A stretch of 64,000 bases of DNA from a virus: positions 37,244-101,243 of the IMG/VR virus record IMGVR_UViG_3300030040_000144, one strand, 5' to 3'. The position numbers and the translations under genes were made by a program. Positions 1 to 18,622 of this stretch are shown here, in pieces. The notes beneath the pieces are model-generated. The model searched no databases and was not told the origin of the DNA. It saw nothing but the letters and a program-made list of their open reading frames with translations. Positions within the stretch are counted from its first letter, which is position 1; the number at the start of each line of letters is the position of its first letter.

Positions 1-3000
1 CGGCACAAGGTTCTACCGCCAACACTTACTGGTGGAATAATGAGCAGAGCAAGCTTGATAAGGTTACTTATCGCATACATGTACTGTTCCTTACACTGCA
101 CGCCGAGTTTGGCTGGAAGCCCGAAAAATCTAATTTTACCGACGAAGCCGCCGCCGCTTATCCGCTGTATCTTAACGGCGAGCAGATTCAGGGCGATGCT
201 GTGGCTACACTGTCTGAAGCTCAGAAAGAAAAGCTTGAAATAGACGTTCCCGATGGCTGGATAGACGGTAACGGCATGTATCATGGCCAGTTCTATACAC
301 CGCAGATAGGCGGAGCCAAGGCTACCAAGGTGGTAAACAAGATTAATTACGCATCACCCATGCAGTCGCATAAAATGGGAGCTACGCGTCTTTACAATGA
401 CGTGATGAAGGCGGTATGCAAGGACGAACTGCCCGACTGGATGACAAGCAACCCTGCCGCACGTTTCGCTGTTCATGAAGAAGGGTATTACTTCTTTAAC
501 CAGCCAGAAGGTGAGAAAGAACCGATATTCGTCGGGTTCGGCACGTTCGGCTCTGGTAAATGCGACAAGGCCACATGGGGCTACGATAAGAGCAAGATGT
601 TTGCCTTTGAAGGTTTAAACAACAACCTTCCGCTGTGCGACTTCCGTGTACCTGCCGACGAGGATGTTACTTATAACGTAGGCGACGAGTCGTGGGTGTA
701 TAACGGCATAAAGTCGTTTGAGTACTCGTTAGGCAAAACCAATGACGACGGAACGCCCGTGGCAAAGAACGATGCTCTTTTCCGCAGATACTGTAACTTT
801 ATCTACGCTCACGATGTGCGTATGCAGTACTTCCGTGGCGACCGTGCCGCATTCGACGCACGCTATGCCGATGTGTACGACCGTGCTACGGCGGTAGGCG
901 CTACAGATGCCGATACGCAGATGCTCGACGAAATGCAAACCACGAAATACTGGCTGCGCGATGGCGACGAAGCGTTTCATCTGCTGCGTTTTAACTACGT
1001 CACAGGTAAGTTTGTCGATGCGGGCACTTGGACCGATACCGACGGGTATAAAGCCGGAGTTCGAGACCTCTCTACAGACCCCGTAACAAAGGCGGCATAC
1101 GAGGCGTGGAAAGCCAGCGAGGACGTGGGAGACTATGAGAATCTGAACCTCCGCTTTCGTATGGCTATAGCTGCTTCGTTCAACGAGCACTGCGGTAAGT
1201 ATCTTAACAAGAAGAACCATCAGGTGCACTATAATCTTGTTAACTACCTTTTTGCCGGTACCGACAACTGCTCTAAGAACACTTACTACACCATCGGCAT
1301 CACAACGGGATTGTGCTGGCTCTATCAGGACGACCTCGACACTATCTTCAAGACCGACAACAACGGAAGGCAGACAAAGGTTTACTTCCTCTCGCGTTAC
1401 TTCGACGTGCAAGACACCGAGGCCGGACTGAAGAAGCAGAAAGATTATGAAGGTACGGCTTCGGCATTGTTCAATGTTATGGAAGCCGCGTGGGAAACGC
1501 TCGACCCTACCGCCTTACCTGCCAATATGCGTGAGGTGCTGACGGCAATGTGTACGCTTGTCGGAGCCAACGAGGAACTTGACGGACTGACGACAACGCA
1601 GCGACAAACGCCTTACGGATGTCTGCACAAGTATTTTTTCTCCACCCAGAAGTACTTTGCCGAGTCCGCATGGGCAGAGCAGCAGCGTATCCGTTACGAT
1701 TGGCCCGCATCGTGGGGCTATGAGAGCTATGGTAATCAGGCGCGTGGAGTGTTGGCGGTAACGCAAGGCATTGGCGACCAGCTTGAGAGCGAGGTGCAGT
1801 ACATGACGCGCCGTCTGGCTCTTGTGTGCTCTTATGCGGCATGGGGAGATTTCTCCAGCGGTGTGAACACGGGTTCTACCGGACTTGTGGATGCCAGCGC
1901 AGGCTTACAGTTTACGCCGGGCTCCGGCCGTACGGGAGGTGAATATACATTCGACCTTGTTCCTCATCAGTTCATTTACCCTTGCGGTGTGCGAGACCGT
2001 GCACTCATCAATCCGCACTTCCGCATGATACCGGGTCAACATTACACGTTTACGGTAAACCCTGCTTCCACTCCTATCCCCGGCGACTCGTCTGTGGGGC
2101 TTGCGGCTACAAACTACTACCGCTCTATAGGCAACGTGGGCAATATGGTGGTAGGTAATAACAACTTCACCATACAAGGCCGCCGCATGACTGAGTTTGT
2201 GGCAGAACCAAAGCCCGGCAGTAGCGCCTTTGCTCCGAAGCAGATAGACGTTGATGCGGCGAACCTTCAGAAGCTTTCGCTAAACGGCGTGAGCGCGTCG
2301 AGCGGCACGTTCAACCTCTCAAAAGCCACACGCCTGCAAACGCTCGATCTTCGCGGCACGCGGTACGGACAGGTGCGTATGCCGTCATCACCGCAGCTTA
2401 CGGTAGCCCGCTTCGGTGCCGAGCTTTCACAGCTTGAGGTTCGCGATATGCCGCAGCTTACCACCCTTACGCTCGACGGCTACAGCCGCCTTACGCAGCT
2501 TACGGTACTGAGGTGCGGATCCAGTACTCTGCCGTTAGTGCGCGGATGTAGCGATGCCGCCGCCCGGCTCAGTACGCTGCGCATTGATGCCGTGGCGTGG
2601 ATTGATGTAGCTCCTGCCGTGTTGTCGTACCTTGCATCAGTACCTACGTGCGACATTCAGGGACGGATAGCTGTGACCGACGGACAGAATGTTGACGCAA
2701 CGCTTAAACTGGCACTGCTGCGCAAGTTTGGCGATATAGACTCTGAGAGTAATGCGCTCTATGTTACATACTCGCTGCGAAGCGTTACAGGACTGAACAT
2801 CACGACTCAGCGTTTTGTGATAGCAGAAGCGGGTGACTACCCTTATCAATGCTCTGTTTTGCCTTCAATGGCCAACAACTTTACAGACTTGCGGTGGTCG
2901 GTGTCTGACAACGATTTCAATGTTACGGTAGATCCTCTTACCGGCGTGCTGCACGCTCCGGCCGTAGGTGAGGAAAGCAACAACCCTACCGCTACGCTTA

Positions 3001-4250
3001 CCGTTACTGCCACGCTTATAGGCGGGAAAACCATTGCCGCTACGGTAGAACTGAAGCTTTTTAACCGCATCCCCAAACTGGGAGACTGGGCTTATTATAA
3101 TGGTGAGTTCGACTCTGTGCTTTACCCCGGCAAGAGGGTGATAGGATGGGTTTACAAGGTAACTCCGTATGCCGACCTTCCTACCGAGGTGCTTAACGAG
3201 TATCTGAAGAACGAAAAGATTTCAGCGCAGTACACCGTCGGAAAAACCATGTACGAGGTACTGATAGAAAACACCGAAGAAATTACCATCACCTCGTCTG
3301 ATAACGCCAATTCGTTCCGCGAACTTCCCTGGGGAATCTATCCGCAAGACACGGGCGAAGAAGGCTTTACGTCTGATGAGTGCAAGCCTATTGCCGAAGC
3401 TCTCTCCATATCGGAGATGGACCTTAAAAACATACCTGCGCTTAAAGACTGTACGCGCCGAGGTATGTACGATGAAGAAGGCAATGAAACCGCATATATA
3501 AAAGACGCTCACGCATACGATGACAGTCAGCCCGACGGTTTTAAAGTGTATGCAGCAAACGAAGCGCCGTCGCAGTGGAACGGACTGAAAGATACCGCGT
3601 CTATAGTGGCGCACGCCAACAACATTCTGGAACACTATGTGGGTGAAGGATTGCTTACCGACAGTGAAGGCCATACCATATTTGACTATCTGCCCGCAGG
3701 CCGCACGCACATATTACCACGTAACAACAAGGAACTGGCCGATCTGTGCGTAGCGTTAGGAAACATAGGCGGTCACGACCGCTGGCGGCAGTTGGCATAT
3801 CCCGCGGCATACTCGTGTATGTTATACGAACCCGAACTGAACGGCAAGCCAATAGAAGGTTTGTCCGAATGGTTCTCCCAAGGTCATTGGTACTTGTATG
3901 GCAGTGGCGATATGGTACGTCTATATATATTTTTCCGTAACAGCCGTGCACTTGCGCCTGCCGATGCCGGTACGCCTACTGCCGAGTTCTCTGATGAGGA
4001 TAACCCTTTGCGCCCCTTAGAGCCTACCGATGCCCGCCGCCCATGCTATGCCAACCTACAGAAGCGCGCGCAGACAGCAGGTCTTAGTTGTCCCGTCAGC
4101 AATCCTGCGCAGACTAACCGCTGGAGCAGCACTGAGTTCAGCAGCTACTACAGCTGGAACAGTAACTTCAGCAGCGGCAACATCTACGGCAACCACAAGT
4201 ACTACAGGTTTAGAGTCCGTCCCGTCGTCGCTTTTCCCTTTATTCTTTAG
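1..4250 (+). CDS. DGR target protein, 5'-partial. The frame is open back to the window start, and the track ORF 201..4250 begins at an internal GTG. A large tail or surface protein with leucine-rich-repeat-like central segments and a C-terminal variable region.
   Basis: No stop in frame from nt 3 to 4250. LxxLxL-type repeats occur around aa 700-800 (LQKLSLNG, LQTLDLRG, LTTLTLDG). The last ~45 aa (NRWSSTEFSSYYSWNSNFSSGNIYGNHKYYRFRVRPVV) are a diverged copy of the TR-encoded peptide 0.95 kb downstream. Confidence 0.8.
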   Translation, partial: AQGSTANTYWWNNEQSKLDKVTYRIHVLFLTLHAEFGWKPEKSNFTDEAAAAYPLYLNGEQIQGDAVATLSEAQKEKLEIDVPDGWIDGNGMYHGQFYTPQIGGAKATKVVNKINYASPMQSHKMGATRLYNDVMKAVCKDELPDWMTSNPAARFAVHEEGYYFFNQPEGEKEPIFVGFGTFGSGKCDKATWGYDKSKMFAFEGLNNNLPLCDFRVPADEDVTYNVGDESWVYNGIKSFEYSLGKTNDDGTPVAKNDALFRRYCNFIYAHDVRMQYFRGDRAAFDARYADVYDRATAVGATDADTQMLDEMQTTKYWLRDGDEAFHLLRFNYVTGKFVDAGTWTDTDGYKAGVRDLSTDPVTKAAYEAWKASEDVGDYENLNLRFRMAIAASFNEHCGKYLNKKNHQVHYNLVNYLFAGTDNCSKNTYYTIGITTGLCWLYQDDLDTIFKTDNNGRQTKVYFLSRYFDVQDTEAGLKKQKDYEGTASALFNVMEAAWETLDPTALPANMREVLTAMCTLVGANEELDGLTTTQRQTPYGCLHKYFFSTQKYFAESAWAEQQRIRYDWPASWGYESYGNQARGVLAVTQGIGDQLESEVQYMTRRLALVCSYAAWGDFSSGVNTGSTGLVDASAGLQFTPGSGRTGGEYTFDLVPHQFIYPCGVRDRALINPHFRMIPGQHYTFTVNPASTPIPGDSSVGLAATNYYRSIGNVGNMVVGNNNFTIQGRRMTEFVAEPKPGSSAFAPKQIDVDAANLQKLSLNGVSASSGTFNLSKATRLQTLDLRGTRYGQVRMPSSPQLTVARFGAELSQLEVRDMPQLTTLTLDGYSRLTQLTVLRCGSSTLPLVRGCSDAAARLSTLRIDAVAWIDVAPAVLSYLASVPTCDIQGRIAVTDGQNVDATLKLALLRKFGDIDSESNALYVTYSLRSVTGLNITTQRFVIAEAGDYPYQCSVLPSMANNFTDLRWSVSDNDFNVTVDPLTGVLHAPAVGEESNNPTATLTVTATLIGGKTIAATVELKLFNRIPKLGDWAYYNGEFDSVLYPGKRVIGWVYKVTPYADLPTEVLNEYLKNEKISAQYTVGKTMYEVLIENTEEITITSSDNANSFRELPWGIYPQDTGEEGFTSDECKPIAEALSISEMDLKNIPALKDCTRRGMYDEEGNETAYIKDAHAYDDSQPDGFKVYAANEAPSQWNGLKDTASIVAHANNILEHYVGEGLLTDSEGHTIFDYLPAGRTHILPRNNKELADLCVALGNIGGHDRWRQLAYPAAYSCMLYEPELNGKPIEGLSEWFSQGHWYLYGSGDMVRLYIFFRNSRALAPADAGTPTAEFSDEDNPLRPLEPTDARRPCYANLQKRAQTAGLSCPVSNPAQTNRWSSTEFSSYYSWNSNFSSGNIYGNHKYYRFRVRPVVAFPFIL
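4107..4233 (+). repeat. DGR variable repeat (VR), 127 bp, at the 3' end of the target gene
   Basis: 116/127 nt identical to 5055-5181. All 11 mismatches sit where the downstream copy has A (A->C, T, T, T, T, G, T, G, G, C, T). The 3' ~40 nt (IMH-like, GC-rich ...gtccgtcccgtcgtcgct) are identical. Confidence 0.9.
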
Positions 4251-4265
4251 CCTTTTGGCGCACTC

Positions 4266-4285
4266 GGCTCGCCTTTTAGCGAGCC
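4266..4285 (+). promoter_or_regulatory. GC hairpin about 30 nt downstream of the VR, a candidate DGR homing-enhancing hairpin or cruciform
   Basis: ggctcgc-cttttа-gcgagcc: a perfect 7-bp stem with a 6-nt loop directly 3' of the VR and stop codon, the position known for DGR VR-flanking hairpins. Confidence 0.45.
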
Positions 4286-4325
4286 GCACATCACGCAAAA
4301 ACACGCATTTTTCAGTGTTTGCAAT

Positions 4326-4356
4326 AAAAAAGTACGGCGTAACCGTACTTTTTTAT
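4326..4356 (+). terminator. Rho-independent terminator after the target gene
   Basis: gtacgg-cgtaa-ccgtac stem followed by a TTTTTTATTTT run. Confidence 0.5.
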
Positions 4357-4469
4357 TTTATTTTATTATCTTTGTGTCTGTTTTAACGGATAAAAAACCC
4401 TCACGGTTTTATCCGGCAAGCTAAATTACAACACAAATTACACACAAAACACACTACGACTAAACGTAA

Positions 4470-4910
4470 ATGTCAACAAAACAATACGTCAACATAACAC
4501 AGCAGCAAATAGATAAAAGCCGCCAGTTAAAGAAAGAGAAAGTCAGGACTATTCACCAGCAGCAGGTTTTTCGTGATGCGCAGAACATATACTATGTTCT
4601 GGCGCAAGTGCGTAAAACATGCCCGGTAAAATACCGTGCAGTTATAGAACCTCTATATACGGAATGCGCAGCTCTGCTGGTAAACTTGTCTATAGCTTAT
4701 GCCGACCCCGTAGCGCGAATACCGCAGCTTACCGTAGCCGCCGCGCACACCGACGCCATAAAGACCGTTATTGGCATTATGCGTTCGTTAGGCTGCATAA
4801 GTAATGACGACTTCAAGAAAATCAAGACACTCGTCGCTTCTTGCGCCTCGCAGGTTTTAGCCTGGCGAGCATCGTCAGTGGTCAGAGTAACACAAGGTAA
4901 TGACCAATAA
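4470..4910 (+). CDS. avd: Accessory variability determinant (Avd)-like small basic protein
   Basis: 146-aa basic, helical-looking ORF located between the target gene and the TR/RT, the canonical avd position. No other match is recognisable from sequence alone. Confidence 0.55.
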   Translation: MSTKQYVNITQQQIDKSRQLKKEKVRTIHQQQVFRDAQNIYYVLAQVRKTCPVKYRAVIEPLYTECAALLVNLSIAYADPVARIPQLTVAAAHTDAIKTVIGIMRSLGCISNDDFKKIKTLVASCASQVLAWRASSVVRVTQGNDQ

Positions 4911-4922
4911 ATCAGATAGGTT

Positions 4923-6401
4923 ATGAATTGTGTTAGCGCACCACAGGAAGTTTTAAAAGGGAGGCTTACCTACATAGATGCGTACCCTACGGCGTTCCCC
5001 GCATACGGATACGGCAACTATGCTGGTTACGAAGATGCAATGCCTCAATCAGATGCGCAGACTAACCGATGGAGCAGCACTGAGAACAGCAGCAACAACA
5101 GCTGGAACAGTAACTTCAACAGCGGCAACATCAACAACAACAACAAGTACAACAGGTTTAGAGTCCGTCCCGTCGTCGCTTATGATACTCCTATAGACTT
5201 TCTCGATCTAGTACTGGAGGCTTTTTATGACTGCTGTCGTCGTAAGCGTACCAGTCAAGCGTGCATAGACTATATGCAGATAGCCAACGAAGACCTGCCC
5301 GCATTGGCGCACGAGCTGTACACCGGCACATACCAGCCTGGTGTGAGCACGTGTTTTTTGGTAAAATATCCTAAATATAGAGAGGTGTTCGCGGCTTGTT
5401 TTCGTGACAGAATCGTACATCATTTTTTATTCATTATACTCAATCCTCACTTTGAAGAAAGATTTACAAAACAAGGTAACGTGTCGTTCAATTGCCGTAA
5501 AGGTTTCGGAACACTTGCTGCGCAGCGTGCGGTAGCTAAAGCCATGCGCGAAGCAACCGACGGTTATCGCAAAAAAGCATGGATATACCGCGGCGATATA
5601 GTATCGTTCTTCATGTCTATAGACAAGCGCATCCTATGGCGCAAGCTGGAGCCGTTCATCAACACTCATTATAACGGTCCGTACCTGGCGCAGGTAATAG
5701 CTGTGGCCCGTGTAACGGTATTCCATTGCCCCGAACATAACTGCGTGTTCAATACCGACCCCGCCGAATGGAAAGACCACATAGAGACCCTGAAATCACT
5801 CTTTGGCAATACAGACCACTTCGGTATGCCTATAGGCAATCTTACCACGCAACTTTTTGTGAACTTCTTTATGTCGTTCTTCGATGAGTTTGTCATCGCG
5901 TGGTTCAGTGCCCGCGGCTATCGTGTGTACTACGTGCGTTTTGTCGATGACTTCATAGTGATATGCGTAAGCCGTACCGTGCTCAAGGTATTCGTAAAGA
6001 GCGCGCGCGTGTTCATGTATGCCGAACTCGGCATAGAGCTGCATACAGACAAGTACCACTTCCAGCCCGCCTCGCACGGGGTAATGTTTGTGGGAGCCTA
6101 TATAAAGTTCGGCCGCATATATCTGTCTAACCGTACACTGGCACGTTTTACCGAGCGCGTTTACGGTTTCAATGAATTGCTCAATAATAAAGACCAAATC
6201 ACCATAACCGACCTTTGCCGCATAGAGCAGGTAGTGAACTCCTATTTAGGCTTTTGCCGCGACAAGCGCACCTACAGCATCCGCCGCGCCATACTGTTTA
6301 CGTTCTGCCGTGCCTTTTATGAGTACTTCTACATTAAAGGCCACTATGACGGCATCCGCCTTCGCACCGCACATAAACCTATAAAAACCACCGCATCATG
6401 A
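4923..6401 (+). CDS. DGR-type reverse transcriptase. The functional start is probably downstream of the TR, around 5185-5275; the track ORF start at 4923 includes the TR in frame.
   Basis: RT motifs are present: YVRFVDDFIVI (YxDD box, ~nt 5931-5960) and IGNLTTQLF (DGR-RT-specific [I/L]GxxxSQ-like motif). The gene is about 400 aa after the TR and sits directly 3' of the TR. Confidence 0.9.
   Translation: MNCVSAPQEVLKGRLTYIDAYPTAFPAYGYGNYAGYEDAMPQSDAQTNRWSSTENSSNNSWNSNFNSGNINNNNKYNRFRVRPVVAYDTPIDFLDLVLEAFYDCCRRKRTSQACIDYMQIANEDLPALAHELYTGTYQPGVSTCFLVKYPKYREVFAACFRDRIVHHFLFIILNPHFEERFTKQGNVSFNCRKGFGTLAAQRAVAKAMREATDGYRKKAWIYRGDIVSFFMSIDKRILWRKLEPFINTHYNGPYLAQVIAVARVTVFHCPEHNCVFNTDPAEWKDHIETLKSLFGNTDHFGMPIGNLTTQLFVNFFMSFFDEFVIAWFSARGYRVYYVRFVDDFIVICVSRTVLKVFVKSARVFMYAELGIELHTDKYHFQPASHGVMFVGAYIKFGRIYLSNRTLARFTERVYGFNELLNNKDQITITDLCRIEQVVNSYLGFCRDKRTYSIRRAILFTFCRAFYEYFYIKGHYDGIRLRTAHKPIKTTAS
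5055..5181 (+). repeat. DGR template repeat (TR), 127 bp
   Basis: The invariant partner of the VR. Adenine-rich, with many AAC codons in the VR reading frame (encodes ...NSSNNSWNSNFNSGNINNNNKYN...). It lies immediately upstream of, or within the 5' extension of, the RT ORF. Confidence 0.9.
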
Positions 6402-6865
6402 ACACAACCATCACACACACCGATGCCCTTGAGCGTATACCTACCGCCATAGTACGCTCTTACACCCGTGGCAAAGAGATTCTGACACTAAACCTCGCTC
6501 CCAAAGCGTACGATACGGAGACGGGCGAACACCTTTACCGCTGCACTACTCTTTCGATAGTACACGCTGGTCGCCTTACCGCACCGCAGGTACTCGGCAC
6601 GGTGTATAGCAACGGGCTTTTCGACGGCATTACACCCGATTTCCTGAAAACTCTGACACGCATGTACTCCGTTCCCGACTATGATACTCTGGCGGCACAC
6701 CTCATAGCCGCACGCTATACCTATGCCGAAGAGTTGGCGGTACACCGCAAGGCACTGATGGGCGATACCGCGCCGATAACTGAACTTACGGCGTGGGCAG
6801 ACCGCTGCAAGGCCATGGCGGCAGCCGCATTCAGCAAAACCGAAACCGACGGGAAGCAATCATGA
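6398..6865 (+). CDS. Hypothetical protein, translationally coupled to the RT (ATGA overlap)
   Basis: ORF of 155 aa with a start overlapping the RT stop. No recognisable motif. Confidence 0.45.
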   Translation: MNTTITHTDALERIPTAIVRSYTRGKEILTLNLAPKAYDTETGEHLYRCTTLSIVHAGRLTAPQVLGTVYSNGLFDGITPDFLKTLTRMYSVPDYDTLAAHLIAARYTYAEELAVHRKALMGDTAPITELTAWADRCKAMAAAAFSKTETDGKQS

Positions 6866-7191
6866 AGGTAGTCCACGCAATATCAGAGCAGGAGCGCACC
6901 GCAGGCTGCACGCTATACCTTTTGCAGCAAGGCATATTCTATCACGCCTTCGGCCGATGCGCCGCGTTTATGCGTGCCGTTACCGGCTACCGTGTGCGCA
7001 CCGTACGGCTGGGTAAAGGCTTTACTGACCAATTGGGAATACCGTGCGCCGCCATAGACTGCGCTCTGCATAAGGTTGAAAAGAAGTACCCTGATGTTAC
7101 CGTATGCCGCACGCCCGGCACACCGCATTACACGCTAACACTGCCGCCGCACGTAGCCGCCGAGATTCTGTACGAAGCCGCCACCACATAG
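6862..7191 (+). CDS. Hypothetical protein
   Basis: ATG at 6862 overlaps the previous stop (ATGA). 109 aa. No motif recognised. Confidence 0.4.
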   Translation: MKVVHAISEQERTAGCTLYLLQQGIFYHAFGRCAAFMRAVTGYRVRTVRLGKGFTDQLGIPCAAIDCALHKVEKKYPDVTVCRTPGTPHYTLTLPPHVAAEILYEAATT

Positions 7192-7300
7192 CCACATACG
7201 TTTTATTATTTCCGCCCTGCGCACACACCGATGTCCGCACCGCGCCATACCATAGTTCTATCTTTGTTTAGTAAGTTAAACCAAGATAGAACTATTTTTT

Positions 7301-7609
7301 ATGACAGAACATGACTACTCCGTGTCGGGTTACAGCATCTCTGTAAACAACCTGCACATTTACCGCTCTTACCGTTACAAGGCAAGCCAAATGCAGAGTT
7401 TCCTTGAAATGGCGCACATAAACTATCCGCACTCTAACGTCTGGATTCGCGATTACCGTTCGCTCAAGGTCGAATGGATGGTACACAACGCCCTGTATCG
7501 CCTGCACATACTGCGCAGCCGCACCGCCGATGTCGATCTTAACTACCCCAACCATTTTGAGTGGGCATACATCATGCTGGCACCGCTGGCACGTTTAATC
7601 ATTAAATAA
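7301..7609 (+). CDS. Hypothetical protein
   Basis: 102-aa ORF immediately upstream of the large tail-fibre-like gene. Confidence 0.35.
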   Translation: MTEHDYSVSGYSISVNNLHIYRSYRYKASQMQSFLEMAHINYPHSNVWIRDYRSLKVEWMVHNALYRLHILRSRTADVDLNYPNHFEWAYIMLAPLARLIIK

Positions 7610-7620
7610 CCCCCTGCCGT

Positions 7621-10600
7621 ATGATGACCGAAGCCACCACCAAAGACTATTGGATTTCGCCCCAGGCGCTGCGCCTTGAGCCTAACGCGTTGGGCAACCC
7701 CGACTATCTGCAAGCCTCGTGCACCGCCGGAGCGCAGATACTGGTTTACGTAAAAGACATCATAGGCTACGATGCAGGACACAACTACCGCCGATGGCCG
7801 CTGCAAGCCTCGCCCACTGTATTTAACACCCATACCATCAAGTACGTGTACGCCGCCATACCGCGCACTACTGATGCCGGACGCACCGCCCAGATAGTGT
7901 TCCCCTCAGAGCGCATAGACATATACGGTCTGAATGAAGCGGAAGAACAGAAGGGCAACCCTGACTACTACTACATATTCCTTCAGGGAATACTAACCGC
8001 ATCGGGCGATAACGGCACCACCAAGCGCACGTGGCAGCAGCGTGTAGCCACGGGCTACCTGTCGTCGGACGAAGCGGTGAATGCCGGACCGTCTGACACC
8101 GAGTGGTATCAATACAGCACCGTAGATGGCATAGTGACGTTCCTGAAGAACCTCGCCATGAAAGCCGGAACGGAGTTCGTGCAGCTGTTTGCCCGTACGC
8201 TTACCATCGTTTCGGGCGGACGGATAGAGTTTGAAGGACAAGACGGAGGCGTAACCGGGATGGCCGATGCCACCACCCCCGAAACCGCCGCCGACAAGAT
8301 AGTGACACCGCAGTACATGGACGACAACGCCCTGTCAAAGCGACACGATGACGAGACCCCGTACAGCCTGGGAGCGAAAGACCTTGTGGCACGTCGCGAC
8401 CTCGACGTGTTCGGCAACACACGCCTTCACGGGCCGCTTACCGTAGGGCAGTACAATAAGGGAGTGGAAGGAGCGCACGTAGATTTTTACGGCAATGCCG
8501 AGTTTGAAAGCATAGTGAGCCGCAGCTTCATCGAGTCGCCCGAACTGCGCTATAACCGCACCACCATTACCGTGGGCAATAAGTGGCAGACCAAGGGTGC
8601 CGGAATCATAGAGCACGTGTGGAACAACGCCAACCTCGACGGTTCTCCTCTAAGTGCCAACACTCGCGGCGTGGCGTGCCTCAAGCTTGAGCCGGGCGAA
8701 GCCGGAGCTATAGCTGTAGACGACAAGTGCCAAGGCGTGTTCCATATAGACGGAGCCAAGAACGATCCATCCACCACCGACTCGCGCGACGGAAATTTCC
8801 ATTTCGCCGGCTTTACCACCATATACTTCGTCATTACCGAGATATACACTGCCGATACGTTGCCGCAGTACATAAAAGACCGGCTCAGTCCCACCGATAC
8901 CGTAGGGCAGAACCAATACTTCGCGTACGAACTTAGAGCCGCCACATGCGCCGCGTTACCACCCGAAAACCGCGATTACTGGACCGATGCCACGCATCCG
9001 CAGCCCGGTATGCACTTTGCCGCATACGCCAACGCCACCAATGCCGACCGTCAGGCTTCGCGCCTTACCACCACCACATACCAGCTGCATTTGGCAGGTA
9101 TGACGGGCTGGACCTACACCGAAGCCAACATGCGCCTCATTATAGGATGGCTCACGGGATTTTCTTTCCTTCAGCGCGTATGGGACAACACCAAGGGCGA
9201 GTTCGTTGAAGTAACCAAAGAACTGAACGGCGAAGGCATAGCCACGGGCAACATTTACATGTGGGGCAGCATAGACCAGTTCGACCGCGTGCCGCAGCTT
9301 GTGGCGCAGCAACCCTACTACAAGAGCACGGAGACCGCCGACCCTCCCGAGGGAATCATACTGAGCACCGACGGTACGCCACATTACGAGCTTAACGGCT
9401 GGAGCGCCGATGCCATAACGCCTACCGCCACCGCAAGAATAGTGTGGCAGCAGTGGCTTTACACCTACAGCGATGGCACTTACCGTACCGGGCAGGTAGC
9501 GTTTCATGCCGCCCACCCCACGGCACTAACAGTACTGCCAAGCCAGAGCATAGTGAGCGTGGCACTGAGCGACTGGTACGACACTGCGCACCCCGACGAC
9601 ATCGAGATAAACCTCAGCGCACGCCTCATGGCAGGCAGTGAGCCCGTGGCCATAACCGAAGCCACTGCGCAGTATGCCGACGGTAACTCCGGCTCCGGTG
9701 CAACCATAGACACTGCCGGAAGCTCCATCACCATCAGCGATGACGGCACTACCGCACAGTTCCGTCTCAAAATAAAGGGTTACGTTGGTGTAACGGTAGA
9801 CGGCACCACCCCCGAAGATTCCTACATAACGCTAACGCTTACCTCCGCCGTGGGTACAGCAAGCGGCATGGTAGCCATAGCGCAGAACCGCGAGGGCGAG
9901 CAGGGAAAACCCGGCGAGCAGGGAAAACCCGGAGCAGCGGGCATTACCGTGCGCCGCACGGAGTGGGAAGAAGGCGTGCAGTACCGCAACGACTCTTCCG
10001 CCGCTACCGCCGCTCCCGACGGGCAACGCTATCTTGACGAGGTATCAGTAACCAGTCTCGCCACCGGAACGGCGCAATGGTACGTGGCGCGCCCCACGCA
10101 TAACGGAATGACTTCTTCGGCAGCCAACAAGCCGTCCACCGCAGCCGGAAACGACTGGTGGGAACCCGTGAACGACATGCGCCCATTGCGCACCTCGTTT
10201 GCCGACATCATGACCGCCTTCATAAAGTTTCTCCAGGTAAACCAGATACAGATAACCGACGACGACGGCACTCCTTACGGAGCCTTCGGAGGCGGCACGG
10301 ATATGGAATACCCGTTGTGGTTCGGGGGAAAGACTTATGCCGATGCCGTAACCAAGTTCAACCGTCAGGGCGACGCATGGATAGGCAAGAACTTCAGCGT
10401 GGTAAACGGAGCCGTGACGTGCGATGCCGGAGAGTTCAACAACGTAAAGGTGAAAGGAGATTCCGAGTTCTCCGGAACACTGAAAGGTGTTTCCGGCTCG
10501 TTTAGAAAACTGAACTGCGTAAACGACAACGGCGAGTCTGTAGGAGGTATCTCGTTCGGTTCTACAGGGAGGATGTATTTCTCTGGCGACCTGCTTAGTC

Positions 10601-11121
10601 GAGGTTACAATTACGACCTCGACCGCAGTTATCGTTTCTACACAAGCGACATCTGGTGCGCGGGTAATTTCGGGCATAACGGAAAAACGGTTGCCGTGGT
10701 TGTCAAAGACGAGATGCGGGTGTATACCGACGACAAGAACTATGAAACCGTGAAGCTACCTCAGAAGTTTATCGCCGGAACTTCAAACAAGTATTACGAG
10801 ATACGTCTGTACAATTCCGGTTATGAAGATTCTCCGGAAAGCGACACGGCCGGTCTTCCGATTGACGTAGTTGTATTCTCGCAGTCGGATGACTGGTACT
10901 ATGTGTTCATACCGTACGGAAAAGGCAAGGAGTTTACCATCATTAACGCCAACGACAGAAGCAGCATACACTACGCCGACACAATGGGATGGAAAGAACT
11001 GAACGGCGGTCTGTCAAGACATTGCGTTTATATTGACCCCTCATGGCTTTACCCCGTTCCGCCAACCAGCTATCTCGGGCGTGGCGTATTCACCGTCGAT
11101 TCAGATTTGGACTGGGAATGA
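7621..11121 (+). CDS. Tail fibre / receptor-binding-like structural protein with a short collagen-like segment
   Basis: 1166-aa ORF rich in Thr/Gly/Asp, with GEQGKPGEQGKPGAAG Gly-X-Y repeats at ~nt 9895-9945. It is adjacent to the DGR target gene. No VR-like sequence at its 3' end. Confidence 0.5.
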   Translation: MMTEATTKDYWISPQALRLEPNALGNPDYLQASCTAGAQILVYVKDIIGYDAGHNYRRWPLQASPTVFNTHTIKYVYAAIPRTTDAGRTAQIVFPSERIDIYGLNEAEEQKGNPDYYYIFLQGILTASGDNGTTKRTWQQRVATGYLSSDEAVNAGPSDTEWYQYSTVDGIVTFLKNLAMKAGTEFVQLFARTLTIVSGGRIEFEGQDGGVTGMADATTPETAADKIVTPQYMDDNALSKRHDDETPYSLGAKDLVARRDLDVFGNTRLHGPLTVGQYNKGVEGAHVDFYGNAEFESIVSRSFIESPELRYNRTTITVGNKWQTKGAGIIEHVWNNANLDGSPLSANTRGVACLKLEPGEAGAIAVDDKCQGVFHIDGAKNDPSTTDSRDGNFHFAGFTTIYFVITEIYTADTLPQYIKDRLSPTDTVGQNQYFAYELRAATCAALPPENRDYWTDATHPQPGMHFAAYANATNADRQASRLTTTTYQLHLAGMTGWTYTEANMRLIIGWLTGFSFLQRVWDNTKGEFVEVTKELNGEGIATGNIYMWGSIDQFDRVPQLVAQQPYYKSTETADPPEGIILSTDGTPHYELNGWSADAITPTATARIVWQQWLYTYSDGTYRTGQVAFHAAHPTALTVLPSQSIVSVALSDWYDTAHPDDIEINLSARLMAGSEPVAITEATAQYADGNSGSGATIDTAGSSITISDDGTTAQFRLKIKGYVGVTVDGTTPEDSYITLTLTSAVGTASGMVAIAQNREGEQGKPGEQGKPGAAGITVRRTEWEEGVQYRNDSSAATAAPDGQRYLDEVSVTSLATGTAQWYVARPTHNGMTSSAANKPSTAAGNDWWEPVNDMRPLRTSFADIMTAFIKFLQVNQIQITDDDGTPYGAFGGGTDMEYPLWFGGKTYADAVTKFNRQGDAWIGKNFSVVNGAVTCDAGEFNNVKVKGDSEFSGTLKGVSGSFRKLNCVNDNGESVGGISFGSTGRMYFSGDLLSRGYNYDLDRSYRFYTSDIWCAGNFGHNGKTVAVVVKDEMRVYTDDKNYETVKLPQKFIAGTSNKYYEIRLYNSGYEDSPESDTAGLPIDVVVFSQSDDWYYVFIPYGKGKEFTIINANDRSSIHYADTMGWKELNGGLSRHCVYIDPSWLYPVPPTSYLGRGVFTVDSDLDWE

Positions 11122-11171
11122 GAAACGGATAACATGAATTTTACAACTGAAACCTAAACATTTATCAAATC

Positions 11172-11636
11172 ATGGAAGTAACAGTAAAAAGAATAGCCCT
11201 GCGCCCCACCTACACCATCGGGCGCATGTACATTGACGGGCAGTACGTGTGCGACACCCTTGAAGACACCGACCGTCACCTCACCTCTGCCATGAGCCCC
11301 GCGCAGATAGCCGCCGTAAAGGTGCCCGGCAGTACCGCCATACCCACGGGCAGATACCCCCTGAGCCTTAACACCGTGTCGCCGCGGTTCGGTAAGCGCA
11401 AGGCTTACCAGTTCTGCGGCGGCCGCCTGCCGCGTCTGTGCAACGTGCCCGGCTACAGCGGCGTACTTATACACATAGGCAACACCGAAGCCGACACTGA
11501 AGGCTGCATATTGGTGGGCAAAAACAAGGCCGTGGGGCAGGTGCTACAGTCGGCCGACACGTTCCGTGCCGTGTACGCCCTGCTCGATGCCGCCGCCCGC
11601 CGTGGTGAGCGCATCTTCATTACCATAGAGCGATGA
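11172..11636 (+). CDS. YkuD (L,D-transpeptidase)-fold-like protein, a possible cell-wall-acting or tail-associated enzyme
   Basis: C-terminal LIHIGNTEADTEGCILVGKN matches the H-x-G...G-C-[IV] catalytic signature of L,D-transpeptidase catalytic domains. Confidence 0.4.
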   Translation: MEVTVKRIALRPTYTIGRMYIDGQYVCDTLEDTDRHLTSAMSPAQIAAVKVPGSTAIPTGRYPLSLNTVSPRFGKRKAYQFCGGRLPRLCNVPGYSGVLIHIGNTEADTEGCILVGKNKAVGQVLQSADTFRAVYALLDAAARRGERIFITIER

Positions 11637-11680
11637 CCGCCCGAAGCCCGCACCGTAACCCACGCGTGCGGGCATAAAAA

Positions 11681-11710
11681 AAGCCGCTATCTTCGCAGAC
11701 TGCGGCTAAA
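11681..11710. terminator. Bidirectional intrinsic terminator
   Basis: aaaaaagccgc-[loop]-gcggctaaaataaa: a stem flanked by A/T runs, between convergent gene blocks. Confidence 0.5.
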
Positions 11711-11853
11711 ATAAATTAATTATAATTACTTTTTCAACTATCGCCGCCCCCCGGCAGCCGATTGTATGTTTGTATAAGTTTATACTCGTTCTTGTTGAGT
11801 ACAATGCAAAGGTACTTTTTTTTTCCGGTATTCCAAATTTTCGGCTTGTGATT

Positions 11854-12393
11854 TTAAAATTTCACGTCTTTCAGCCACGTCTTGTCGTATTCCGTGGCAT
11901 TTGCGGTCTTGTAGAAAACCACGTCGTTATAATTGCGGTCGTGGTAGAGTACCGCCTTTGTGCGTTCGTCGTTAAGCCACACTATCTGCAAGCGCCATGT
12001 GCCGTAAGCGTCCAGATGATCCTCGAACTGAATAACATCATCGGGGTCGGAGTTGAGATGTCCCATAGTGCCGCGCTTGTACAGATACCACTTCCCGTCT
12101 TTTCTGAGCACCGTCATGCGGAACGGACTCACGGAGTGCTTGTCGCTGGCCACTATCTCCAGCTTGTACTTTGTGATACCGTTGTTTTCCGCAGTGGCTA
12201 TCTCGTCCGTCTCCCACTGCCCGAAGAGGGCTTTCTCCGTTTCGTAATACCCGCAGTCATCCTTTTGACACGAGGCGAAACATACGCTCATCATTACCAC
12301 GCATACCGCCATGATGGTGCGGAACATTCCTTTGAGCAGCCGTGGCAGCGTTCTTGCTTGTCTCTCTCTCTGATTCTTGATTGATTGTTTCAT
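11854..12393 (-). CDS. Lipoprotein (probable moron)
   Basis: Internal Met start MKQSIKNQ... followed by a hydrophobic signal and a CFASC lipobox-like motif. Minus strand, between + strand blocks. Confidence 0.45.
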   Translation of the reverse strand: MKQSIKNQRERQARTLPRLLKGMFRTIMAVCVVMMSVCFASCQKDDCGYYETEKALFGQWETDEIATAENNGITKYKLEIVASDKHSVSPFRMTVLRKDGKWYLYKRGTMGHLNSDPDDVIQFEDHLDAYGTWRLQIVWLNDERTKAVLYHDRNYNDVVFYKTANATEYDKTWLKDVKF

Positions 12394-12878
12394 GGTCCTT
12401 GTTGTTTTGGTTGATATTGAAGTTATGTATTTATTTTTTTCAGTGTAAATTATTATTATTCTTTTTGAAAACTCGCGTCTTGATGCCACTCGCCATATAT
12501 GTCCGCTCCGTGTACTTGTTTTACATACTTTTACAGTGGGAACAAAGAGGTGTTTTCACGTGTTTTTCCGATAGGGTTTTCATAAGCTTCTCGTCTCGCT
12601 CGCCATCGGGCTGTGGGCATTGCCGGTAATGGTGGCGAGGGAGGTGTGGCAGTGGAAACGCTACAGGCTCGCGAGATTTGAATGGTGGGACGTGGTGAGG
12701 TAACACATCCTTGTGCGAATAGACTTTCTTGCATAATACCAAAAAGAAAGACCGCTGTCATCACGGATAGCAGCCTTTATTGATTTTAACATTTTAAATA
12801 CTTCATAGAATATAAAATTCTTGTGAAATACTTGATGCAAGGTCCATATATTTTTATTCTCCTGCAAGAGAAATTATG

Positions 12879-13448
12879 TTAATTGACAAGCATCGGTCCT
12901 GTATCACGGCCTGTGAACGAAATATTGATGTTTCTGGCATAGTCGCCATTCTTTTCTGTCATTTCATCTATATGTAGCGTCACCTGGAATGTCTTTCTTC
13001 CGTATTCGTCGCCCTTGTCAAGAGTCTTGATTTCCGCCCATGCCCCTTTCACGGGTTGATTGTTCTCCCATGTACTGAGTTCGTGCTTCTTGTATTCAGA
13101 TAGCCATTGCTCCTTCCATCCCCATACCGAACCATCTACCTGCATTATCTCGTAACGTCCATCATACATATCATCTTGCGGAGCATTGTAGACGATTATT
13201 CCTATTACATAATAATCGTTTTTGAAATTACCTTCTATCGGGTCGCTTTGAAGGTTAAAGAATCCCCAGTCATACCTTTTTGAATAACTCAACTGATGCG
13301 CGGGTTTTTCTCTAAGGAGTTTAGCGAACGGCGATTCTACAGGCACATACTCCTCTTTCTCTGCTCCGTCGCTGCTGCAACTCGCTACACTCGCGCCCAC
13401 GGCAAGCAGCATGGCTGCCATGAGCAAAAATCCAAAAATCTTCTTCAT
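12879..13448 (-). CDS. Lipoprotein
   Basis: MKKIFGFLLMAAMLLAVGASVASCSS: a classic Bacteroidales lipoprotein signal with a Cys lipobox. Confidence 0.5.
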   Translation of the reverse strand: MKKIFGFLLMAAMLLAVGASVASCSSDGAEKEEYVPVESPFAKLLREKPAHQLSYSKRYDWGFFNLQSDPIEGNFKNDYYVIGIIVYNAPQDDMYDGRYEIMQVDGSVWGWKEQWLSEYKKHELSTWENNQPVKGAWAEIKTLDKGDEYGRKTFQVTLHIDEMTEKNGDYARNINISFTGRDTGPMLVN

Positions 13449-13759
13449 AATGAATTTATTGTTTTTAGTTAATAATGTTACCATATATTTATTGTTGTCA
13501 ACGAAATGCCCTAAAACACGAAAAAACTTGCCTTATGGAGTGCGGAGTTTTCGTCTTTTCGTTTGTTTCGTTGACAAAAAAGAACCATTTGCAGACTCTC
13601 CCCCACACCGCTATGTCCGATGTTTCACGCACGTTTTTTGTACCTTTATACCATGAGCAACGTCATTGGACTTTCGTAGTACTTTCATAGTACTTTCGTA
13701 GTACTTGCTCTGTTTGTATTCACGCCCCTTTTTAGGAGTATTGTTTCACGGAAAAATTA

Positions 13760-14212
13760 TTGCTTATGGCTAAGATTGTTCCAAGCCACTTGGTTAGTTC
13801 CATTAGTGGCAAACTGTGCAAGAAGGACACTACTTACATTGGTGTCAACAAGCGCACGGGTAAGATGTATTCGGCTGGCTATCACGGATGCGTGCAGCCG
13901 AACAGTGAAAAACAGCAGATGGCAAAGGCCACTTTCAAGAAGAAAGCGCAGTTTGCCTCTGCTTGGTGGAAGCAGAACCGTCCGTCGGCTACGTCGGCGA
14001 AGGGCAGCGAGGCTTACCTCTCGATGATGAAGGCATACAAGGCGCAGCACAAGATTGGTAATCCCTACTCTTTCCTCCGTTCGCTGGTTACAGACGATTG
14101 TAAGGTGATGCTTAAAGGTACCGACCTTACGGGCGGTATCGCATCGGGAGGCGACACCGCCGAGGGTGGAAGCCCAGGACAGCAGAAGCCCGGCGGAAGC
14201 CTTGAAGGGTAA
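13760..14212 (+). CDS. Hypothetical lysine-rich protein
   Basis: 150-aa ORF preceded by a triple tagtactttc repeat and a 13-bp inverted repeat. Confidence 0.35.
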   Translation: MLMAKIVPSHLVSSISGKLCKKDTTYIGVNKRTGKMYSAGYHGCVQPNSEKQQMAKATFKKKAQFASAWWKQNRPSATSAKGSEAYLSMMKAYKAQHKIGNPYSFLRSLVTDDCKVMLKGTDLTGGIASGGDTAEGGSPGQQKPGGSLEG

Positions 14213-14267
14213 GGCTGGGATGGAAGAGTAAGAAAGGCGCATAGTCGGATAAGACCGTGCGTTTTTT

Positions 14268-14591
14268 TTAGTCTGCCGACACGCTGGCGTTAATCTTCGC
14301 TCCGCACGTGGGGCATACCGTCTGTATATTGAACTGGACGGGAGTCTTTACCTGATCTTCTTCGGGGAACAGCTGGGTTATCTTGACACCAAGCGCATCA
14401 GCTATTTCGTACAGGTTGCTAAGCGTGGGGTTTCCGTTTATACGTAAACTCAAGGCGCCCGGTGTAACTGTGCGTACGTTATTATCTTTATCTGTTCTGG
14501 TTATTTTTGCCGCAAGGTCTGAAAGCGTCATGCCTTTTTGACGCATTATTTCCGCAATGCGCAGTCTGTTCTTTTTTATTTCTGTAGCCAT
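14268..14591 (-). CDS. XRE-family HTH regulator with C-terminal VCPTCG motif
   Basis: N-terminal HTH (GMTLSDLAAKI...) and a C-terminal ...TVCPTCGAKI motif. Divergent from the small protein and nuclease operon. Confidence 0.55.
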   Translation of the reverse strand: MATEIKKNRLRIAEIMRQKGMTLSDLAAKITRTDKDNNVRTVTPGALSLRINGNPTLSNLYEIADALGVKITQLFPEEDQVKTPVQFNIQTVCPTCGAKINASVSAD

Positions 14592-14800
14592 AGGTTTATA
14601 GTATTATCAAAATGTTGCACAAATATAAATATAATATTGTTAAACCAAAACATATTTAGTGGAATTAGTTTTATTTTTAGTTTTTGCTATATTTTTATTT
14701 GCATATTTAAAGTTATATCATTAGTTTTGCGCCGTGCTTTTGCATAGAACGCTAAAAACACGTGTTGCGTTGATTCAATAACTCTTAATATTATTTAAAA

Positions 14801-14986
14801 ATGAGACAAACAAAAGTAACCATTGAGTTAGGAAAAGAAGATTTGCGGCTTGCCGCCACATCAGTTATCGAGTATTTAACATTATACCCACCTTTTAGCG
14901 AAGAACGCAGTGTAGGATTCGATATGGGTGTACAGCTCCTTTTTGATGTCTTGAAATCCACTTTTAAGGATAACGGAAAGGAGTAG
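14801..14986 (+). CDS. Small conserved protein, paralog of 22192..22374
   Basis: 61 aa. It shares the K-V-TI...IEY-TL-PP core with the ORF at 22192. It ends 4 nt before the nuclease gene. Confidence 0.35.
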   Translation: MRQTKVTIELGKEDLRLAATSVIEYLTLYPPFSEERSVGFDMGVQLLFDVLKSTFKDNGKE

Positions 14987-14989
14987 TGT

Positions 14990-16516
14990 ATGGAGAAATA
15001 TGAGTTATCCGAAGCAAAAATAAATGCCGTAAAGAATATTCTGTGCGACAAAATTTCTTTGGAGTGCAGTTGTCTTACAAGTGTAGAACGTGTTCATTTA
15101 ATTCTTGCGTCTTGCGCTTATGTAAATAACCCTAAATCCTTGATTTCTTCAAAACGTTTACATGGAATTATGGATGTTTTACACTTTAGACACCATCGTT
15201 TCCGTGCTCATCGTATGCGCTACTTTTACGAGCTGATAAAGAACATTGCTGCTGAAGGCGAAAACATTTATCCAGAACGATTGCAAACTTTAAAAGTCGC
15301 AGAACTTGTCAAAGAGGGATTGAGCGAAGACCCGAGCGTATCTTCTATTTCCGACGAGATAAACGAGTATAAGAGCCAAGTTGATATTATGAAGAAGAGA
15401 TATTCCGACTTGGTTGAAGACCTGATAGAAGTACAACGCAAGGAATCTGATGAATACTTTGCAAACAAGAAGCCTTATGTACAAAGACATGACCGCAGAT
15501 TTGCCTTTGACGCGAGAAACCAACCTTACACGAACGAGGAGTTTATAGAAAAGCTCCGTGCGGTGTATGGTGATGATTATGACTATTCAGATGTGAATTA
15601 TACAAATAACCGAACCGCAATAAGGTTAAAGTGTAAAAAGCATGGCGATGTATTTGAACGCTTGCCATTGAACTTGCTGAAGGGATGGGGTTGTCCTTCC
15701 TGCAATAAGGAGCAGGGAAAGACATGGGCAAATACTATTGCGTGCTCTTACGATCCACAGCAACGCAGTGTGCGTTGGAATACAAAACGCTTCATTGCAG
15801 AGTCGAAAGCTCGTTTTGGCGATGATGTTTTTGATTACTCCCAATGCGTTTACAAGAACAACGACACTCCCGTTACTCTTATACACAAACACAGTGGAAA
15901 AGTCTTTTCGGTCTGGCCTTATGAACATTTGCGACATGATGAATGTTACTATGGAGAACGCCGCTACTATCAAGGCACTACGGATGCAGAAAAAATCCAC
16001 TTCATCGTTAAACGTATTAGAGAGAACGTGAACCATAAAGTATATGTACCGATGCAGCATATTGAAGATTCTTGGAAAACCATTAAGTGTATATGTCCTG
16101 TTCATGGTGTGTTTTATACCAATCTGGCGCGTATATATAATGGAGTGTGTTGTCCTGAATGTCAAATGCCGGCAGGCGAAAGCCTTGGAGAGCGTAATGT
16201 CCGCAAATACCTTACGAGCAAAGGAATAGTTTTCTTGCAGGAATACCGTATTGAAGATAAAGGATATTTTGAGAACTTCGCGCGTGTTGATTTCTATCTG
16301 CCCGAACATAACGTTTTCATAGAGTTCCAAGGTGAGCAGCATTATGGCATAGGCAATGAGGAGTTGTCGCACGGACGAAAGACATTCAAAGAGCAAAAGA
16401 AGCGTGATGATAGTTTGCGGAAATACGCTTTTGACAAACGTATTGAACTGATTGAAGTTCCGTTCTTTTTTCGTAATCACGTTAAAGACTATTTGGATAA
16501 GTATTTTGTTGTCTGA
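14990..16516 (+). CDS. Protein with triple zinc-ribbon-like repeats and a C-terminal Vsr/DUF559-like PD-(D/E)xK nuclease domain. A putative homing-endonuclease-like or defence nuclease.
   Basis: Three ~80-aa repeats each carry a Cys/His cluster (...GWGCPSCN, ...HDECYYGE, ...GVCCPECQ). The C-terminus VDFYLPEHNVFIEFQGEQHYG matches the D-x(n)-IE-x-G-xx-H pattern of Vsr/DUF559-type endonucleases. Confidence 0.45.
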   Translation: MEKYELSEAKINAVKNILCDKISLECSCLTSVERVHLILASCAYVNNPKSLISSKRLHGIMDVLHFRHHRFRAHRMRYFYELIKNIAAEGENIYPERLQTLKVAELVKEGLSEDPSVSSISDEINEYKSQVDIMKKRYSDLVEDLIEVQRKESDEYFANKKPYVQRHDRRFAFDARNQPYTNEEFIEKLRAVYGDDYDYSDVNYTNNRTAIRLKCKKHGDVFERLPLNLLKGWGCPSCNKEQGKTWANTIACSYDPQQRSVRWNTKRFIAESKARFGDDVFDYSQCVYKNNDTPVTLIHKHSGKVFSVWPYEHLRHDECYYGERRYYQGTTDAEKIHFIVKRIRENVNHKVYVPMQHIEDSWKTIKCICPVHGVFYTNLARIYNGVCCPECQMPAGESLGERNVRKYLTSKGIVFLQEYRIEDKGYFENFARVDFYLPEHNVFIEFQGEQHYGIGNEELSHGRKTFKEQKKRDDSLRKYAFDKRIELIEVPFFFRNHVKDYLDKYFVV

Positions 16517-16540
16517 CAGCATGAGGTAGGGCAGAACCTT

Positions 16541-17456: not shown

Positions 17457-17488
17457 TTTGGTAAAAGGTAGAAAAATTACTACTTTTG
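17457..17488 (+). promoter_or_regulatory. Bacteroides-type promoter (-33 TTTG / -7 TActTTTG) for hicAB
   Basis: TTTG sits 21 nt upstream of TACTTTTG, about 30 nt before the hicA start. Confidence 0.4.
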
Positions 17489-17518
17489 CAAAGTCAAACA
17501 AATAAAACGTATAAAACA

Positions 17519-18595: not shown

Positions 18596-18622
18596 TTTTT
18601 ATTTTTTTTGCAAATACGGGCG

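Follow-up and report, generated by a model that had tools for sequence, protein, structure and literature searches.

A probably functional diversity-generating retroelement aimed at the tip of a giant tail-region protein in an uncultured phage of gut Bacteroidales

Does a pair of direct repeats in an uncultured viral genome, differing from each other only where one of them has adenine, belong to a working diversity-generating retroelement (DGR), and what would such an element diversify? The repeats lie near one end of a 64,000-nucleotide stretch of IMG/VR record IMGVR_UViG_3300030040_000144 (positions 37,244 to 101,243), which was analysed at its full length and is called the window here. A first reading of the letters alone, the original prediction, had proposed a complete DGR comprising a target gene with a variable repeat (VR) at its C-terminal end, an accessory variability determinant (Avd), a template repeat (TR) and a reverse transcriptase (RT). 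Our analysis bears this out, and we put the probability that window positions 1-6865 hold a complete, functional DGR belonging to a tailed, uncultured gut Bacteroidales phage at about 0.9. The locus combines adenine-only differences between TR and VR, a DGR-type RT, a target gene with its VR at the 3´ terminus and an Avd, and copies from a sister lineage show VR hypervariation restricted to adenines. Its features are as follows.

3..4250, plus strand, DGR target gene, its 5´ end lost at the window edge; 1415 codons remain, with TAG at 4248-4250
3747..4247, plus strand, C-terminal 167-aa domain carrying the VR, putatively a divergent C-type-lectin-like domain of the Lcl_C/DUF1566 type
4106..4233, plus strand, VR, the last ~43 target codons
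4265..4286, plus strand, GC-rich hairpin with an 8-bp stem (CGGCTCGC/GCGAGCCG) and a 6-nt loop, without a T-tract (folded as DNA)
4323..4357, plus strand, strong intrinsic terminator behind the target gene (15-bp stem, then a T-run)
4367..4374, plus strand, TATCTTTG, a match to the -7 promoter consensus 96 nt upstream of avd
4470..4910, plus strand, Avd, 146 aa, a four-helix bundle
4923..6401, plus strand, RT open reading frame (ORF), 492 aa, with homology to the Bordetella RT (bRT) from about residue 95 and the TR within residues 1-86
5054..5181, plus strand, TR, in codon phase with the VR, containing 45 A and 13 AAC codons
6398..6865, plus strand, 155-aa ORF of unknown function, whose start overlaps the RT stop codon (ATGA)

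The repeats themselves carry much of the argument. Compared without gaps, VR and TR form a 128-nt direct repeat with an offset of 948 nt, a multiple of three, and homology is lost abruptly on both sides; the 127-bp repeats first proposed (4107-4233 and 5055-5181) were real, if one base short. As predicted, the two mismatch at exactly 11 positions, at each of which a TR adenine faces C, T or G in the VR, an outcome with a hypergeometric probability of 4.2e-6 given 45 A in 128 nt. The emphasis that had been placed on AAC codons was also justified, with 10 of the 11 mismatches at AAC codon positions 1-2 and the remaining one a synonymous change (CGA to CGC). All non-A positions are identical, including the final 30 nt of the GC-rich 3´ end (ACAGGTTTAGAGTCCGTCCCGTCGTCGCTT), from which it is 14 nt to the target stop codon. 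The VR does therefore lie at the end of the gene, with ~43 codons and not the ~45 originally given. No third VR/TR copy was found on either strand of the window, also when A positions were ignored. Mutation of the 13 TR AAC codons would yield ~10^15 protein variants, and that of all A positions together up to ~10^25. An AAC codon cannot be mutated to a stop, and only two codons across the TR can.

Natural relatives provide a record of how the repeats change. Within the window's own lineage, positions 1-11624 align to positions 5526-17142 of metagenome contig L007 at 95.3% identity. The L007 TR departs from that of the window by one A-to-G change, which is present too in L007's own VR, consistent with transfer from TR to VR. 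Against its own TR, the L007 VR has 19 substitutions, 19/19 at A, plus a 6-nt in-frame insertion; against the window VR it differs at 17 sites, all of them A in the TR, which is a divergence of 13% vs 4.7% in the flanks. The sister lineage, recovered from eight different metagenome samples (L008-L015), has an Avd 69% identical to that of the window. Its eight TRs are identical and its avd and RT genes at least 99.9% identical, and all eight VRs are distinct. Here, 91 VR substitutions fall at A sites vs 1 at a non-A site, 29 of the 42 A sites vary, and two copies carry in-frame VR indels. Adenine-biased VR/TR differences were thus seen in nine further natural copies. The same gene order, again with A-biased VR/TR pairs, is found in two IMG/VR contigs with more diverged RTs (L005 and L006; RT identities of 66% and 47% between them) and in the cultured phage BS-TP1 (46%).

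VR and TR also differ in length among these relatives, by +6 nt in L007, +3 in L011, -45 in L014, -6 in L005 and -3 in L006. All these differences are multiples of three and lie at or beside AAC runs. Length differences of this kind occur in ~7% of DGRs and have been put down to template slippage (Wu et al., 2018; PMC5758913), and the in-frame VR indels seen here match that pattern. Taken together, the natural copies show that this DGR family has been active in nature recently; they are strong evidence that mutagenic homing is ongoing in it, and good if indirect evidence that the window's own copy takes part. Near-identical DNA was absent from the phage collection for window positions 1-12000 and 39001-64000, and the plasmid collection held only insertion sequence (IS) and SPFH fragments.

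Profile and structure searches, together with motif alignment, support assignment of the RT to the DGR type. The protein matches RVT_1 (2.5e-10) and phrog_1423 (3.4e-60), and its best PDB match is bRT (8ub7, E 1.8e-16, 63 bits), with a Cas6-RT-Cas1 protein (30 bits) and a retron RT (20 bits) as runners-up. No group II intron RT was among its PDB matches at E 0.01, and none of the NCBIfam models for group II, Drt and retron RTs came near its cut-off; these matches agree with the original prediction's reading of the RT. The IGNLTTQ motif, read earlier as characteristic of DGRs, holds up as well: PIGNLTTQLF aligns with PIGSLTSQLF of bRT, with T for the S of (I/L)GxxxSQ, a replacement kept in six relatives. 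The YVDD catalytic motif (from YVRFVDDF) was a mis-parse. Motif C, at 5937-5951, aligns RFVDDF with RYMDDI of bRT and so reads FVDD, and FVDD, not YxDD, is found in all six aligned Bacteroidales-phage DGR RTs, including the lineage with variable VRs. The nearest phage RTs are those of Bacteroides phages BS-TP1 and F1/F2/F4 and of Bordetella phages, which have been reported as DGR carriers (PMC8143477).

The avd-like ORF at 4470-4910 had been recognised correctly. Its product gave no meaningful PDB match by sequence, whether as a single sequence or as a profile, and only fold comparison worked. The AlphaFold2 (AF2) model has four helices and a predicted confidence (pLDDT) of 85, and the top 22 PDB matches in a Foldseek search all belong to the Avd/S23-IVP family, with target-normalised TM scores of 0.73-0.86; among them are 4dwl, which is Bordetella Avd by itself, and 8ub7 chains B-E, where Avd is bound to bRT. 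In addition, 17 of 19 family members match Pfam bAvd (PF22296) near full length, below threshold (best E 1.1e-4). On the modelled fold, we regard membership of the Avd family as confirmed. The 155-aa ORF that follows the RT gene has equivalents (155 and 159 aa) kept in position in L007 and in L008-L015; it has no Pfam, PHROG or NCBIfam match and is not a recognised DGR component.

The TR was predicted to be followed by the RT gene. It is indeed close to it, but it lies inside the RT ORF, beginning 131 nt into the frame and in phase with it. A TR that overlaps the 5´ end of the RT ORF defines the "group 3" cassettes of DiGReF (Schillinger et al., 2012; PMC3521204), a layout that the window shares. 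Across all five diverged lineages, with RT identity as low as 47%, TR and RT share one reading frame, and the indels upstream of the TR (12 and 30 nt) are both multiples of three. No ATG separates the TR from the conserved N-terminus of the RT, the first in-frame ATG past the TR being RT codon 118, within conserved sequence, and a conserved ATG stands directly after avd. Translation of the TR into a working N-terminal portion of the RT, giving a fusion whose first ~86 residues come from leader and TR, is conceivable, and we hold it to be unlikely. If it were so, the polymerase would carry an unmutated "germline" copy of the variable lectin tip, and the extension could, for instance, help the RT to assemble with Avd and RNA, or play a regulatory or targeting part. 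We found no evidence in the DGR literature searched that TR translation has been the subject of a test.

Within the leader (4923-5053), the blocks TTAAAAGGGAGSCTTACCT and GGTTACGAAGATGCAA are kept across lineages and the codons between them change freely. Such conservation might stem from a function of the DGR transcript as RNA and not from constraint on the protein. A small ORF at 4978-5196, preceded by the Shine-Dalgarno-like AGGGAGG, was considered and rejected, as the stretch is deleted in L008 and L005.

What the element would diversify is a very large protein. The target frame is open from base 3, giving 1415 codons in the window in place of the minimum of 1349 aa first stated, and the gene is truncated at its 5´ end, as had been noted. 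Its full-length homologue in L007 (3077-9781) has 2234 aa, so that ~816 target codons are missing from the window. The leucine-rich repeats (LRRs) described in the original prediction correspond to a sub-threshold signal only (Pfam LRR_4, E 0.005, 17 bits vs a cut-off of 27). Otherwise the target matches phrog_24896 and phrog_14959, families of unknown function, and beyond these PHROGs and the LRR signal no structural homologue could be named for its ~2000 N-terminal residues. A protein search of the phage collection returned only BS-TP1 and three uncultured fecal contigs. The BS-TP1 homologue, gp27 (2187 aa), is 27% identical across 94% of the fragment.

The C-terminal 167-aa domain is far more widespread, with 120 representative clusters, ~35 of which are metagenome proteins of 1,900-2,600 aa that end with it. 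The suggestion that the target architecture might be undescribed does not survive these comparisons, given the homologous gp27 in the same gene order in BS-TP1, the dozens of large metagenome clusters with the same end, and the publication of ~2000-aa targets (PMC12694917). The DUF1566-type models raised earlier for the target C-terminus proved informative. Although the window's own score stays sub-threshold, Pfam Lcl_C (DUF1566) is matched by 45 of 65 shorter homologues of the domain, with a best E of 3.8e-13, and the family profile matches the C-terminal domain (CTD) of Legionella Lcl (8q4e) at E 4.6e-6, across the VR segment. These matches are consistent, if indirectly, with a VR-bearing tip that is a divergent lectin-like domain of the Lcl_C/DUF1566 type. 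The depositors described the Lcl C-terminal domain as C-type-lectin-like and trimeric (PMC11162425), and DUF1566-type VRs are an already published class of DGR target, category "d" or CLec2 (PMC5758913).

The interval between target and avd holds several potential signals. The GC-rich hairpin starts 31 nt beyond the VR end, and hairpins stand at the same place in L008, L005 and L006, four lineages with the window, where stem sequences differ and pairing is kept. By analogy with the Bordetella phage BPP-1, it is a candidate target-recognition stem-loop. The -7 promoter consensus of Bacteroides is TAnnTTTG. A match to it is present in the window and in L007, the L008 counterpart being TAACTTTG, and the background is 0.34 matches per kb; this is weak evidence that TATCTTTG at 4367-4374 might act as an avd-side promoter. 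No Rfam family matched window positions 1-12000.

A working model can be drawn from these parts. The avd-TR-RT unit would be transcribed, and the RT, seated on an Avd pentamer as homology to Bordetella bRT-Avd suggests, would reverse-transcribe the TR RNA and misincorporate opposite adenines. The mutagenised cDNA would then take the place of the VR in the target gene's 3´ end, in a directional exchange guided by the identical GC-rich 3´ ends of the repeats and by the downstream hairpin. In this way the last ~43 codons of a ~2230-aa tail-region protein would be re-randomised at 13 AAC codons with the TR held constant. Its position and the type of its domain suggest that the target is a binding protein associated with the tail, and that the element most probably serves to change which ligand or receptor this protein recognises.

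Whether the DGR belongs to a phage is a question for the rest of the window, in which the following features matter most.

7621..11121, plus strand, tail-fibre-like neighbour outside the DGR, 1166 aa (tblastn segments)
16541-16984, minus strand, and 23256-23696, two Cro/CI-type helix-turn-helix regulators
26184-27053, ParA-like ATPase (phrog_164, E 7.5e-48)
31300-31707, minus strand, TnpA-like ORF, and 31743-32984, plus strand, TnpB, together an IS200/IS605 pair
51439-53433, minus strand, large terminase, 664 aa (annotated terminase homologues, E 4e-38)

The tail-fibre-like gene near the DGR was rightly predicted: its tblastn segments match annotated tail fibre and tail proteins of crAss-like and Porphyromonas phages, and its sister-lineage orthologue matches many tail-fibre PHROGs via collagen-like repeats. 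Many window ORFs match phage-only PHROGs, and the other genes include a sliding clamp, an exonuclease, methyltransferases and a radical SAM protein. No capsid, portal or tail-tube genes were identified within the window. Because the target is cut by the window edge, no virion genes can stand upstream of it here, and the structural module is expected there, outside the window; sister contigs reach 97-100 kb and 185 kb. Among the ORFs scanned, no integrase was recognised, in a scan that was not exhaustive and a window that is part of the genome. No ParB or Rep was recognised in the window, and the ORF adjoining the parA-like gene had no match. ParA-like genes occur in ordinary phages too. Together, the ParA-like gene, the Cro/CI-type regulators and the lack of a recognised integrase would fit a temperate, possibly extrachromosomal lifestyle, and the phage-plasmid context named in the original prediction, which rests on the ParA-like gene next to the phage genes, is possible but gains no support from the results obtained here. 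The host is probably a member of the Bacteroidales, loosely defined; an Avd-profile scan of the genome collection found one contig only, from a metagenome-assembled genome (MAG) of Paludibacteraceae, and one homologue is labelled Prevotella sp.

Several points weigh against a complete, functional DGR with a tail-associated target. There is no difference within the repeat of the kind that separates the initiation of mutagenic homing site (IMH) from IMH*, VR and TR being identical through the 3´ boundary. The Avd scores 15 bits vs a bAvd cut-off of 40, with no Pfam match above threshold, and the target's own Lcl_C score (18.7 bits) is under the Pfam cut-off of 34.9. The AF2 model of the last 416 target residues, from a 16-sequence alignment, has a pLDDT of 38 and is unusable, and the start codon of the RT is putative. 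A receptor-binding role is suggested by position, and current activity of the window's own copy is argued indirectly, from its relatives. On this last point turns the view that the DGR is real but its window copy a silent relic, with a VR written in the past and now fixed: the population data come from relatives and not from this exact sequence, exact TR-end patterns retrieved 0 further copies in IMG/VR or JGI metagenomes, and RT motif C has F in place of Y. The last of these loses its force in that FVDD is kept in all six related RTs, including the lineage with eight different VRs. Moreover, decay would build up non-A differences between VR and TR, of which there are none, all ORFs are intact, and the VR of the 95%-identical sister copy has been rewritten in another way. 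We find a relic very unlikely. The thought that the repeat is an ordinary duplication or gene-conversion tract with a chance adenine pattern has nothing in its favour beyond the bare existence of the repeat; a p of 4e-6 for the window pair, the same bias in nine further independent natural copies, and the Avd and DGR-type RT flanking the repeats make its likelihood negligible.

What the target does leaves more room for doubt. It might be a surface adhesin for mucin or glycans, or a non-structural protein, rather than a host-receptor-binding tail fibre. The ~2000 N-terminal residues, which match only PHROGs of unknown function and the sub-threshold LRR, would allow this, and a separate tail-fibre-like gene already lies downstream. 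Legionella Lcl_C domains bind glycosaminoglycans (PMC11162425), and the second DGR target of Quimby-like phages is non-structural (PMC8008677). On the other hand, in BS-TP1 the genes for tape measure, baseplate hub and tail fibre immediately precede the homologue, a tail-fibre-like gene follows the target both in the window and in sister lineages, and the BS-TP1 paper regards such targets as tail-related (PMC12694917). We find a target of this other kind doubtful, if well worth keeping in mind. A Bacteroidales plasmid or chromosomal island with a cellular DGR, in place of a phage, would account for the ParA-like gene, the IS200/IS605 pair akin to those of Bacteroides and Alistipes plasmids, an LPD29 domain, the lack of an identified capsid, portal or tail-tube gene in the window, and the one relative in a Paludibacteraceae MAG. 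It does not sit well with the large terminase homologue (E 4e-38), the tail-fibre-like gene, the many ORFs that match phage-only PHROGs, or the RT and target homologues in a cultured 112-kb phage and in IMG/VR viral contigs, and the structural module is expected outside the window. We judge this origin very unlikely, and prefer a tailed phage with a functional DGR.

Set beside the prototype DGR, that of BPP-1 (mtd-avd-TR-brt), the element has the same order of target with VR, avd, TR and RT, and the same adenine-only changes from TR to VR, concentrated in AAC codons. In both, a tail-module protein bears the VR at its very C-terminal end, on a lectin-like scaffold, as far as the window's target can be so classed. 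The modelled four-helix bundle of the window Avd has a TM of ~0.8 to 4dwl, bRT is the closest solved homologue of the RT, with PIG(S/N)LT(S/T)QLF in both, and in each case the VR is closely followed, on its 3´ side, by a GC hairpin. The two part company in RT sequence (27% identity, FVDD vs YMDD in motif C), in the target (~2230 aa vs 381 aa for Mtd, with an apparent Lcl_C/DUF1566 scaffold vs the Mtd type), in the placing of the TR, which lies between avd and brt in BPP-1 and in frame inside the RT ORF here, and in the probable host phylum, Bacteroidota for the window.

The nearest cultured relative is BS-TP1 (PQ571274), a 112-kb phage in which gp27 is the target, gp26 a four-helix bundle and gp25 the RT. 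Like the window, it has the TR within its RT ORF and carries a ParA-like gene; gp27 comes next after the genes for tape measure, baseplate hub and tail fibre. The Avd genes, in contrast, are not detectably similar by tblastn. A backbone common to BS-TP1 and the window was considered and rejected, with only RT and target matching at E 1e-4, and it follows that the DGR-plus-target module is common to different phage backbones. Targets of ~2000 aa, gp27 included, have been reported in temperate Bacteroidaceae phages and are regarded as tail-related (PMC12694917). Far from the main DGR of BS-TP1, its gp76-gp79 region (L003 27864-30613) has a DUF1566-domain gene and a gene annotated as "tail protein" for which the RT family phrog_1423 ranks second among the matches; the region may be a second or remnant DGR.

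Other gut Bacteroides phages follow a similar plan. The DGRs of Hankyphage and Quimbyvirus (PMC8008677) and of the B. uniformis phages F1/F2/F4 (PMC8143477) diversify lectin-fold proteins of the tail module, and all resemble the window in being gut Bacteroidales phages with a target of C-type-lectin type in or near that module. The F1/F2/F4 RTs are 32-35% identical to that of the window, and Quimbyvirus has a three-frame RT, unlike the single RT ORF here. Category "d"/CLec2 of Wu et al. (2018) takes in DUF1566 and DUF823 targets along with Fib_succ_major ones (PMC5758913), and the window VR overlaps a weak DUF1566 match. The DiGReF and Wu surveys drew mostly on GenBank bacterial genomes, without this phage lineage or its ~2200-aa target. 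In Legionella Lcl-CTD (8Q4E), the VR segment aligns to the last 47 residues and an upstream W-x-L-P...EL occurs in the same order; Lcl is, however, an undiversified bacterial adhesin, and the match covers part of the domain only. The TR-in-RT overlap, the in-frame VR indels and the ~2000-aa targets have all been published before, and what is new is the specific phage lineage. The element leaves the knowledge of how DGRs work unchanged. A phage lineage of the roughly 100-kb class, with an invariant TR and sampled VRs that all differ, is a convenient natural system for studying how a gut phage retunes a giant binding protein, and related cassettes allow homing signals (the hairpin) and the TR-in-RT layout to be compared.

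Mobile elements are found at several places around these genes. The DNA of the IS200/IS605 pair is 74-79% identical to Bacteroides and Alistipes plasmid copies, which hints at host range. L007 has an extra IS200/IS605 insertion at 17195-18844, which is not in the window (~11625-11673), and an IS607-type unit (serine recombinase and TnpB) at 297-2266, just upstream of the target region; these point to recent IS traffic around the DGR. A 514-aa transposase-like ORF (49823-51367, minus strand; phrog_8928/phrog_3598) adjoins the large terminase gene.

A few further ORFs of the window may be noted. The 1224-aa and 525-aa proteins gave no match when compared with the PDB. The ORF at 54049-54807 (minus strand) matches positions 1-52 only of Pfam MethyltransfD12, and that at 55009-55524 (minus strand) the middle of a methyltransferase PHROG, so a DNA adenine methyltransferase at 54049-55524 appears to be split or rearranged. 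Finally, a 508-aa HNH/homing-endonuclease-like protein is encoded at 14990-16516, and at 19088-21133 one of 681 aa in which a "large polyvalent protein" domain, LPD29, is found.

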